Virus record (IMG/VR): IMGVR_UViG_3300035208_003134
Location: 33,891-97,890 of that record
Length of the DNA: 64,000 bases
From: a virus
Lineage: Duplodnaviria; Caudoviricetes
Reading direction: 5' to 3' (one strand)
The translations under genes were made by a program, and so were the position numbers. Every line of letters begins with the position of its first letter. Within the stretch, counting starts at the first letter, position 1. Under the pieces are notes generated by a model, which ran no database searches, was not told where the DNA came from, and saw nothing but the letters and a program-made list of their open reading frames with translations. Shown piece by piece: positions 50,931 through 52,355 of the stretch.

Positions 50931-52355
50931 ATGTCAAGGCACGATTTGCTTTTAAATTTAGTTAGAAACGGTGACTTAGACACGGAATTAGGTTATCTTG
51001 ACGGAACTTCAAGTTATTCAAGTAGCTCCTGCTCGTCATCCAGTTCTTCTCGGAGTAGTAGCTCTTGTAGTTCGTCAAGTTCATCCTGCAGAAGTAGCTC
51101 AAGTAGCTCTTCGTGCAGTTCCAGCAGTTCAAGTAGCAGGAGCTCAAGCTCTTCAAGCAGTTCTTCGTCTTGTAGGAGTAGTAGCTCTTCTTCTTTTAGC
51201 TCTTCTTGCAGGAGTTCAAGCTCAAGCAGCAGTTCTTCTTCGTGCCGGAGCTCAAGCTCTTCTTGCAGAAGTAGTTCATCGTCATCCAGTTCTTCTCGGA
51301 GCTCATCTTCAAGTTCGTCTTGTAGAAGTAGCTCTTCAAGTTCTTCTTCTTCAAGCAGAAGTTCGTCAAGTTCGTCTAAGTCTGTGAGCTTATCTTCAAG
51401 CTCGTCCAGTAGCTGCCGTAGCTCTTCAAGCAGTAGCTCCTCGTCAAGCTCTCGGAGTAGCTCAAGCTCGTCAAAGTCAAGCTCGTCCAGTAGCTCGTCA
51501 TTGAGTAGCTCAAGTAGCTCTTCGTGCCGGAGCTCTTCAAGTTCGTCTTGTAGAAGTTCAAGCTCATCCAGCTCTTGCCGGTCTTCGTCAAGTAGCTGTA
51601 AGAGCTCAAGCTCTTCAAGTAGCTCATCCAGTAGTATAAGCGTTGAGAGCGTTTCATCCAGCTCGCGCAGTTCAAGCTCTTCATCAAGCTCAAGTTCTTG
51701 CAGAAGTAGCTCATCCAGCTCATCTTGCCGGAGTAGTAGCTCTTCTTCGTCAAGCTCATCTTCCTGCAGAAGTTCAAGCAGTAGCTCTTCCAGTTCTTCA
51801 AGTTCAAGTTTGAGCTCTTCGTCAAGCTCGTCTAACTCCAGTTCTTCTTCAAGTAGCCGGAGTTCGTCCAGCTCGTCAAGTTTAAGTAGCTCAAGTAGTT
51901 CGTCGCTGTCCAGCTCCTCAAGTTCCAGCTCACACAGCAGTAGTAGCTCTTCAAGCTCATTGTCCAGTAGTTCAAGTAGCAGGAGCTCAAGCTCATCTTC
52001 AAGTAGAAGTAGCTCCAGCTCATCTTCAAGCAACTCAAGTTCGTCCAGTAGCTCGTCATTGAGTAGCTCGTCAAGTTCCAGCAGGAGTAGCTCTTCATCA
52101 AGCTCATCAAATAGTAGTTCAAGTAGTTCGTCAAGCTCTTTGAGTTCCAGTTCATCAAGCCGGAGCTCAAGTAGCAGTAGCTCTTCAAGCAGTTTGAGCA
52201 GTTCATCCAGTAGCAGTAGCTTGAGTTCAAGTTCAAGTAGCTCGCGCTCAAGCTCAAGCTCATCCAGCTCTTCTTGCAGGAGTTCTTCATCAAGCTCCTC
52301 AAGTAGCTGCAGAAGCTCAAGCAGTTCTTGTAGTAGCAGTTCTTCAAGCTTCTAA
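50931..52355 (+). CDS. Poly-serine protein (~80% Ser, punctuated by Cys-Arg)
   Basis: GGAGGTG RBS; 26-aa unique N-terminus, then Ser runs written with mixed synonymous codons. Confidence 0.8.
   Translation: MSRHDLLLNLVRNGDLDTELGYLDGTSSYSSSSCSSSSSSRSSSSCSSSSSSCRSSSSSSSCSSSSSSSRSSSSSSSSSSCRSSSSSSFSSSCRSSSSSSSSSSCRSSSSSCRSSSSSSSSSRSSSSSSSCRSSSSSSSSSSRSSSSSSKSVSLSSSSSSSCRSSSSSSSSSSSRSSSSSSKSSSSSSSSLSSSSSSSCRSSSSSSCRSSSSSSSCRSSSSSCKSSSSSSSSSSSISVESVSSSSRSSSSSSSSSSCRSSSSSSSCRSSSSSSSSSSSCRSSSSSSSSSSSSSLSSSSSSSNSSSSSSSRSSSSSSSLSSSSSSSLSSSSSSSSHSSSSSSSSLSSSSSSRSSSSSSSRSSSSSSSSNSSSSSSSSLSSSSSSSRSSSSSSSSNSSSSSSSSSLSSSSSSRSSSSSSSSSSLSSSSSSSSLSSSSSSSRSSSSSSSSSCRSSSSSSSSSCRSSSSSCSSSSSSF

Follow-up and report, generated by a model that had tools for sequence, protein, structure and literature searches.

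A polyserine protein of a phage head module as a candidate acceptor for a phage-encoded sugar cassette

Introduction

What could a tailed phage do with a gene that encodes little but serine? The question is raised by a stretch of 64,000 nucleotides (hereafter the window), which is the last 64 kb of the 97,890-bp IMG/VR virus record IMGVR_UViG_3300035208_003134, rated complete by CheckV. An open reading frame (ORF) at 50931-52355 on the + strand encodes a protein of 474 amino acids (aa), 377 of which are Ser (79.5%); it is called here the polySer protein. The answer proposed below is that this protein probably accepts sugars on the phage head.

Composition of the polySer gene

The gene and its parts are located as follows (positions are those of the window; nt, nucleotides).

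50919..50925, + strand: Shine-Dalgarno sequence GGAGGTG, ending 5 nt ahead of the ATG
50931..51008, + strand: 26-aa N-terminal module (helix, NGD turn, helix), homologous in collagen-like proteins of the same slot in relatives
51009..51767, + strand: Cys-containing part of the polySer tract, residues 27-279; Ser runs of 1-13, punctuation mainly C-R/K, R and C
51768..52274, + strand: Cys-free part of the tract, residues 280-448; S7-10 units with L, N, R and H punctuation
52275..52355, + strand: last Cys-containing Ser stretch, ending Ser-Phe-stop; C-terminal SSSSSSSF kept in 4/4 homologues
52366..52397, + strand: hairpin with a 13-bp stem 3' of the stop codon; -28.5 kcal/mol, z -4.7

Past the N-terminal module, 376 of the 448 residues were Ser (84%). 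The other 72 were Arg (27), Cys (20), Leu (10), Lys, Val and Asn (3 each), Phe (2) and Tyr, Ile, Glu and His (1 each); 15 CR dipeptides and 1 CK were present, and the net charge of the protein was +26. A first-pass annotation of this DNA had arrived at 474 aa, about 80% Ser, 72 non-Ser residues in 448, about 20 Cys and 15 CR, and the recount agreed with it. Two regimes could be distinguished along the tract, namely the Cys-containing parts and the Cys-free stretch; taken as a whole, it is a quasi-periodic series of S6-10 units broken by Cys-Arg/Lys, Arg, Leu or Asn.

The runs of Ser had a median length of 7 and a maximum of 13. When the tract was shuffled, the mean maximum run was 32.7, and a maximum of 13 or less was obtained in 0 of 10,000 shuffles, so the punctuation is far more regular than chance would make it. 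All six Ser codons were used in the ORF (AGC 90, AGT 87, TCA 85, TCT 58, TCG 30, TCC 27). Only short or weak periodicities were detected in the tract DNA by Tandem Repeats Finder and a repeat finder, the best of them a 27-nt unit in 2.2 copies with 90% matches; this unit, the only clear recent duplication of the tract, lies in the Cys-free part. The tract is therefore not a microsatellite, with small duplications still contributing, and the earlier description of mixed Ser codons with no tandem DNA unit held.

Constraint on the serine frame

An antisense frame of Asp, Glu and Leu codons was open over 339 codons. By itself, such a frame is no evidence of a gene, because TCN reads as GAN and AGY as CTN. 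Among the tract codons, a purine stood at the wobble position of 0 of the 100 AGN codons followed by TCN and of 15 of the 76 followed by AGN; for TCN codons the proportion was 51-73%. The Ser frame is thus the constrained one, since the wobble base varies with the two bases that precede it in the sense codon (AGY, not AGR), and the antisense ORF as a gene was ruled out by this asymmetry. The choice between TCN and AGY had no (helical) periodicity along the tract. An origin of the polySer from frameshifted collagen-like (Gly-Tyr-Ser) DNA was ruled out by codon inspection, as no frame yielded Ser runs; a phage-supplied tRNA-Ser was ruled out too, the genome having no tRNA genes.

Relatives of the phage were fetched by scans of viral and metagenome contigs based on the major capsid protein (MCP). 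The polySer gene was found in the same slot of the head module, between the MuF/HAD genes and the 121-aa/protease genes, in three further contigs (L004=L022, L025 and L031), with tracts of 219, 232 and at least 125 residues, respectively. These homologues agreed with the polySer protein in their N-terminus and in the style of their punctuation, and each of them ended in SSSSSSSF. The proteins of L004 and L025 could be aligned gap-free over 133 codons; the sites of C, R/K, Y/F and K coincided, and Lys and Arg swapped behind the same Cys. Over 107 tract codons, 56 differences were synonymous, 15 of which switched between TCN and AGY, and 7 were non-synonymous, at a tract nucleotide identity of 71%.

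Thr, Ala, Pro and Gly were nearly missing among the non-Ser residues of the four homologues (0/72, 1/33, 0/37 and 0/18; 1/160 in total). Among the one-step neighbours of the Ser codons in the window's tract, these four would be expected at 39%, and 0 were observed (P about 2e-16). From the wobble bias, the excess of synonymous differences and this exclusion, it was concluded at the level of sequence that the gene is real and that strong purifying selection holds Ser and its punctuation, and acts against Thr, Ala, Pro and Gly, with free divergence at the DNA level. Both the absence of these residues and the selection on the protein that the first-pass annotation had read from it were thereby borne out.

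Pairing of polySer tracts with a fused glycosyltransferase

Between the MCP and head-tail adaptor genes lies a cassette of sugar-enzyme genes. It runs to the end of the window and continues at the start of the record, on L015, which is the same phage genome outside the window.

56270..57331, + strand: DegT/PseC-type sugar aminotransferase, first cassette gene
57333..58046, + strand: short nucleotide-sugar-dehydrogenase-like protein
58065..60947, + strand: 960-aa fusion of a glycosyltransferase family 9 (GT9), a methyltransferase and a GT4 domain (hereafter GT960), candidate polySer O-glycosyltransferase
61248..62306, + strand: RmlB-like, dTDP-glucose 4,6-dehydratase-like enzyme
62303..63984, + strand: methyltransferase, 160-aa unknown protein and Methyltransf_24 protein
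L015 456-3098, record start: continuation with a Methyltransf_24 protein and paralogous unknowns of 348 and 314 aa

A scan of viral contigs with an alignment of GT960 was made blind to Ser content; a scan with the single GT960 protein had found nothing there. Tracts of polySer(Cys/Arg/Lys/Leu) were present in 12 of the 15 loci fetched, in one to four ORFs each, versus 0 real cases among 21 loci of at least 5 kb without GT960. Three nominal positives among these controls were discounted: the contig of L004 ends before the enzyme, and the hits in L006 and L007 are an antisense artefact. By shared non-cassette genes, the tract-bearing loci fell into at least four backbone groups, at least three of them other than that of this phage. 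Stretches matching tract-like 8-mers are rare, only 589 having been found in 2.9 million viral contigs.

A phmmer search against 1.84 billion representatives gave one match, P0002, a 1599-aa multi-domain protein with linkers of polySer and Cys-Arg punctuation. Its contig encodes a portal of the P22 type and an MCP of the Phage_capsid_3 family, and belongs to a phage that is not related to the one studied here. Directly behind that MCP were found a DegT enzyme (55% identity), the 960-aa enzyme (56%), both Methyltransf_24 proteins and both unknown paralogues (61% and 50%); three to four proteins of the contig bore tracts.

The phage itself encodes five tract-bearing proteins. The four outside the window, encoded in the structural region, carry tracts in the polySer(Cys-Arg/Lys) style:

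L015 5457-6059: structural-region protein with a short C-terminal polySer tag
L015 6086-6922: structural-region protein with a short C-terminal polySer tag
L015 9817-10803: protein with a 180-residue C-terminal polySer tract
L015 11796-15395: 1199-aa multi-domain protein with a 230-residue internal polySer linker

The homologue of the first of these in L010 ends without the polySer tag. It was concluded from the gene neighbourhoods that polySer tracts travel with the GT9-methyltransferase-GT4 cassette across phage lineages. The co-occurrence with glycosyltransferase clusters, put forward in the first-pass annotation as a check, thus came out positive, the clade of this phage counting as a single event.

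A second nearly free-standing polySer protein was observed in an unrelated cassette-bearing phage (L068:18249-19037). It consists of a 25-aa N-terminus, about 200 residues of Ser, Cys and Arg (35 Cys) and a 38-aa C-terminus with W-T-D-R-V-E-like repeats such as are seen at the end of P0002. The 348- and 314-aa paralogues (L015:1090-2136 and L015:2154-3098) had no family match and have in common an N-G-D-C...K-P-E-G motif. Their homologues (L067:11930-12982 and 13111-14025) are kept within the cassette in unrelated phages, and the paralogues were regarded as candidate new sugar-modifying or transfer enzymes.

The fold of the GT960 enzyme

The GT9 fold of GT960 spans about residues 60-400; in profile searches, residues of about 390-525 matched an O-methyltransferase-like domain and those of about 630-956 a GT4 domain. 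Residues 60-400 were modelled with AlphaFold2 (AF2) from 15 homologues, giving a predicted local distance difference test score (pLDDT) of 84 and a predicted template modelling score of 0.85. The model has the GT9 (GT-B) fold, and its best Foldseek matches were TibC chains (E 2e-11). VIA-align scored it against 3tov (Z 21.3), TibC (Z 20.4, root-mean-square deviation 3.0 A over 268 residues), WaaF (18.9) and WaaC (18.4).

TibC, a protein O-heptosyltransferase, works processively and modifies Ser but leaves Thr untouched; its C-lobe contains an inserted Cys4 iron finger at C339-C370 (PMC4358343). In GT960, six Cys lie at 328-355; the 15 homologues share four of them without exception and a fifth almost without exception. 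By the VIA ranges, without residue-level alignment, this cluster falls about where TibC has C339-C370, and the model suggests that it corresponds to the iron finger. It is plausible from the same model that GT960 works like an enzyme of the BAHT family. A TibC-like action fits the tract, because the tract excludes Thr and TibC acts on Ser and not on Thr.

The variable slot and the N-terminal module

In the sister phages L002/L018, L003, L005 and L013, the slot held by the polySer gene is occupied by a protein that starts with a similar N-terminus of about 25 aa and continues with collagen-like repeats. The shared N-terminal pattern is hydrophobic-x-x-hydrophobic-x-N-G-D-F/L, NGD being invariant. 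These collagen-type proteins, up to 543 aa long, have Gly-Tyr-Ser/Gly-x-Ser triplets followed by a small C-terminal domain (knob). Runs of at least six Gly-X-Y triplets were present in the slot proteins of L002, L003, L005 and L013, and none was found in any frame of the 97,890-bp genome. Two other relatives had different content or nothing in the slot.

In the polySer protein the N-terminus is a 26-aa acidic amphipathic module. A shallow AF2 model gave helix 3-12, the NGD turn and helix 16-24, with a pLDDT of 62 only. An anchoring or oligomerisation/assembly role of the module is suggested, as the collagen-like proteins that take this head-module slot in sister phages have it too. In this respect the docking of the N-terminus on the virion, predicted in the first-pass annotation, gained genomic support.

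Searches beyond the relatives returned little. The polySer ORF had no Pfam or PHROGs match, and no folded domain was found in it with Pfam, PHROGs or phmmer; nothing meaningful turned up nearby in the ESM Atlas. Of the word-indexed protein searches, those started from the N-terminus of the polySer protein or of its L004 homologue found no match, and the one started from the collagen-type N-terminus found one; a 50-aa N-terminal scan of viral contigs found nothing. Among 50,697 phage records, neither megablast with the head region nor tblastn with the MCP found a cultured-phage match.

A tree of protease plus MCP placed the four Ser-type phages in one clade (98/98). As far as their contigs reach, the Ser-type relatives have the same cassette (L031 fully, L004 to DegT, L025 to the marker gene before DegT). 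Collagen-type and other relatives have instead a methyltransferase, GT2 enzymes, a GT9-like protein and giant (Gly-Tyr-Ser)n collagen proteins. Within the larger clade, the Ser-type slot gene and the cassette thus co-occurred perfectly, 4 versus 5.

Further observations were made on the sister phages. Giant collagen-like Gly-Tyr-Ser/Gly-x-Ser proteins (L005:14913-18017, L007:5332-9714, L013:15562-16890; 443, >1035 and 1460 aa) stand directly behind the methyltransferase/GT2/GT9-like cluster, each triplet contains Ser, and these proteins may form a parallel system of glycosylated fibres. In the collagen-type relative L013, a radical SAM/SPASM protein (L013:12120-12851) just ahead of the GT2 fusion hints at a further protein modification in that module. 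The MCP gene was interrupted in three contigs (L013:8839-10564, L031:3271-5080, L030:625-2509); the gap of about 730 bp in L013 holds an HNH endonuclease ORF (9388-9978), which suggests an intron or homing-element insertion.

Neighbouring features of the locus

The order of genes around the polySer ORF was portal, MuF-like, HAD-type phosphatase-like, polySer, 121-aa Cys-rich protein, protease/scaffold fusion and MCP, and all genes adjoining the ORF are on the + strand.

50464..50928, + strand: HAD-type phosphatase-like gene, left border of the variable slot; in Ser-type and collagen-type relatives
52421..52786, + strand: conserved 121-aa Cys-rich protein, right border of the variable slot
52764..54608, + strand: prohead protease/scaffold fusion
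54660..55646, + strand: MCP, the query for relatives

The ATG of the polySer ORF starts 2 nt past the stop codon of the upstream gene (50926-50928), which itself sits between the Shine-Dalgarno sequence and the ATG; this arrangement suggests translational coupling to the upstream gene. The strong ribosome-binding site noted in the first-pass annotation was found as described. The strong 3' hairpin noted there is real too, but it has no U-tract and was not conserved in three homologous loci. As part of a conserved unit the hairpin was therefore ruled out, and it is specific to this phage.

A small ORF resembling cold-shock proteins (MKGIVMWFNAEKGYGF...) was observed at about 55730-55940, between the capsid gene and the sugar cassette. 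It follows a hairpin placed after the MCP stop and has a homologue in L047. The only radical SAM domain of the genome (G000:C1:22578-22976, - strand) lies in an 896-aa ORF (L016:4675-7365, - strand), far from the structural genes.

Proposed role and alternatives

It was proposed that the polySer protein, the product of a late gene of the head module, is, with fair probability, a free-standing fibre or brush of sugar acceptors on the head, coated by the phage's own cassette. By analogy with the collagen-like SPP1 gp12 on hexon centres, the N-terminal module would anchor the protein, which is probably oligomeric, on the capsid. Judging by what RmlB-like and DegT-family enzymes are established to do, the cassette would make a methylated amino-deoxy-hexose, a sugar of the 4-amino-4,6-dideoxy type. 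The TibC-like GT9 domain would load sugars on Ser hydroxyls, the GT4 and methyltransferase domains would extend and cap the glycan, and the head would come to bear a dense fibre or brush carrying glycans. For the Cys residues two readings were considered: the adjoining basic residue may activate the thiol, so that inter-chain disulfides would form after lysis, or Cys may be a tolerated isostere of Ser on the mutational path TCY-TGY-AGY between the Ser codon families.

The acceptor role for O-glycosylation that the first-pass annotation had assigned to the Ser tract is supported by genomic inference, through the 12/15 versus 0/21 loci and the GT9 fold with TibC among the two best matches. Its alternative of phosphorylation found no support, the genome having no Hanks kinase, nor did its mucin analogy in terms of composition, the tract being without Thr and Pro.

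Several points weigh against the proposal. Both the glycosylation of the polySer protein and its location on the virion are things that we infer, and the role of Cys is pure conjecture; the tracts of the fourth backbone group (L071, L075, L077-L081) have no Cys, so a tract can pair with the enzyme without it. Three cassette-bearing loci (L073, L074 and L082) had no tract within 15-22 kb. The association of the Ser-type gene with the cassette inside the phage's own clade amounts to one evolutionary event and is not independent evidence, because the Ser-type phages are one clade; the collagen-type relatives also encode glycosyltransferases, such genes being a general trait of the lineage. The Z values for the GT9 fold are near-ties and do not separate enzymes that modify proteins from those that modify lipopolysaccharide (LPS). 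The sugar genes of the cassette differ from the heptose pathway that TibC uses: heptose pathway genes were not found, and dTDP-glucose-dehydratase-like and DegT-type enzymes are present in the cassette. Finally, the N-terminal homology extends over about 25 residues with NGD alone invariant, and its model is of low confidence.

A more far-reaching form of the proposal was held only tentatively and, taken as a whole, is rather doubtful. It states that the TibC-like fusion enzyme adds a methylated amino-deoxy sugar to almost all residues of a free-standing, capsid-anchored polySer chain about 450 residues long, and that disulfides at the regularly spaced Cys-Arg sites staple this chain into a covalent coat, a viral analogue of mucin. 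This coat would be interchangeable with collagen-like fibres plus GT2/GT9 enzymes and would belong to a widespread, undescribed polySer-tagging system of phages.

Among the alternatives, the one that survives best is an unmodified hydrophilic spacer or entropic brush, with the cassette serving another target such as the host envelope, DNA or another virion protein. It can draw on the polyserine linkers of bacterial enzymes, which have no known glycosylation (PMC2386152), on the use of the same tracts as inter-domain linkers in this genome and in P0002, and on the three cassette-bearing loci that lack a tract. A mere spacer, however, would tolerate Thr, Gly, Ala and Pro, all of which are excluded, and structural proteins that are complete without it would have no need of it as a short C-terminal tag; nor would it explain why the tracts keep so closely to a single transferase family in unrelated backbones. 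We therefore considered a spacer unlikely.

It is less probable still that the protein is internal to the head, an ejection or condensation protein whose N-terminus is a capsid-targeting leader and whose weakly cationic tract accompanies DNA inside. The position of the gene between the MuF-like and protease/scaffold genes and the net charge of +26 would suit such a role. On the other hand, the same N-terminal module heads collagen-like proteins with C-terminal knobs, an architecture of external fibres, and the same tracts tag neck/tail-region proteins and the 1199-aa multi-domain protein.

Another chemistry of the Ser tract was judged very improbable, be it polyphosphoserine with phosvitin-like binding of metal or mineral, a phosphoglycan, or lanthionine, thioether or azoline cross-links between Ser and Cys. 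Phosvitin has Ser runs broken by Arg, Lys and Asn, which the runs of the tract recall; Cys is abundant, and a HAD phosphatase-like gene adjoins. Against these likenesses stand the lack of Hanks kinase, YcaO and LanC in the genome, the place of its sole radical SAM gene, far off on the other strand, the occurrence of the HAD gene in collagen-type relatives as well, and the fact that the enzymes co-varying with the tracts are sugar enzymes.

That there is no functional protein at all, the ORF being the shadow of an antisense gene, a neutral low-complexity expansion or an assembly artefact, is refuted as far as sequence can show: artefacts are common in low-complexity DNA and the antisense frame is open, but an open GAN/CTN frame comes automatically with any polySer frame, the wobble asymmetry is compatible with the Ser frame only, the differences stand at 56 to 7, the neighbours are all on the + strand, and four independent assemblies contain the gene, its start context and C-terminal Phe being alike in all of them.

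If the glycan-coated fibre or brush is the true explanation, polySer(Cys/Arg/Lys/Leu) tracts together with the GT9-methyltransferase-GT4 enzyme would be a signature that predicts self-glycosylating virions in several uncultured lineages. The polySer gene would be a minimal substrate, an acceptor with nothing else attached, and thus a convenient test object. Such a protein would bear on the shielding or sticking of phage capsids in sediments, on the strict selection that keeps low-complexity proteins, and on the use of such tracts as programmable glycan scaffolds.

Comparison with known systems

The serine-rich repeat proteins (SRRPs) of Gram-positive bacteria, adhesins such as GspB, Fap1 and SraP, have very long Ser-rich regions that are O-glycosylated by dedicated glycosyltransferases and form surface fibrils. 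They are built of Ser-Ala/Val/Thr dipeptide repeats with a special long signal peptide, a binding region and an LPXTG anchor, and they depend on an accessory Sec system. All of these features are missing here; the polySer tract is without Ala and Thr and ends in Ser-Phe.

The polyserine linkers of modular carbohydrate-active enzymes of Saccharophagus and Teredinibacter (PMC2386152, PMC2699552) resemble the tract as near-homopolymeric Ser with mixed codons serving as flexible tethers, and the 1199-aa protein and P0002 use it in this way. Those linkers, however, are tens of residues long and join the folded domains of secreted enzymes, whereas the polySer protein has no detected folded domain, is ten times longer and is regularly punctuated by Cys-Arg.

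TibC and AAH (substrates TibA and AIDA-I; PDB 4RAP, 4RB4; PMC4358343) share the fold with the GT9 domain of GT960 and have a Cys-rich insertion in the C-lobe to which its Cys cluster may correspond, and the multiple glycosylation of Ser, not Thr, in a repetitive acceptor by TibC matches the Thr-free tract. The identity is about 15%, and the phage enzyme carries fused methyltransferase and GT4 domains in addition; its predicted substrate would be disordered polySer rather than a beta-helix passenger domain, and LPS heptosyltransferases and 3tov score almost equally.

The SPP1 protein gp12 is a collagen-like trimeric decoration protein of the head, which binds hexon centres via one end (PMC6813328). 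It is likewise encoded by a small accessory gene of the head module, and the slot proteins of the sister phages combine collagen-like repeats with a short end module of another kind, which recurs in the polySer protein. Gly-X-Y repeats themselves are missing from the polySer protein.

The O-glycosylation of mycobacteriophage virions (Che8, Corndog and Myrna; Freeman et al. 2023), as far as it is summarised in PMC12619734, involves phage-encoded glycosyltransferases beside structural genes, and the acceptors are end extensions of virion proteins; the short C-terminal Ser tags on two structural-region proteins of the present phage are comparable. In comparison with what that summary gives, the acceptor here is almost pure Ser punctuated by Cys/Arg and makes up a whole protein (448 of 474 residues), and the putative modifying enzyme is a GT9-MT-GT4 fusion served by a dedicated amino-deoxy-sugar pathway.

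A full-text literature search for polyserine or poly-serine together with phage gave nothing relevant and no published description. To our knowledge, only a few cultured phages have documented glycosylation of the virion. Glycosylation of phage virions as such is thus already known, and what appears distinctive here is the free-standing polySer acceptor in the place of a collagen-like head protein.

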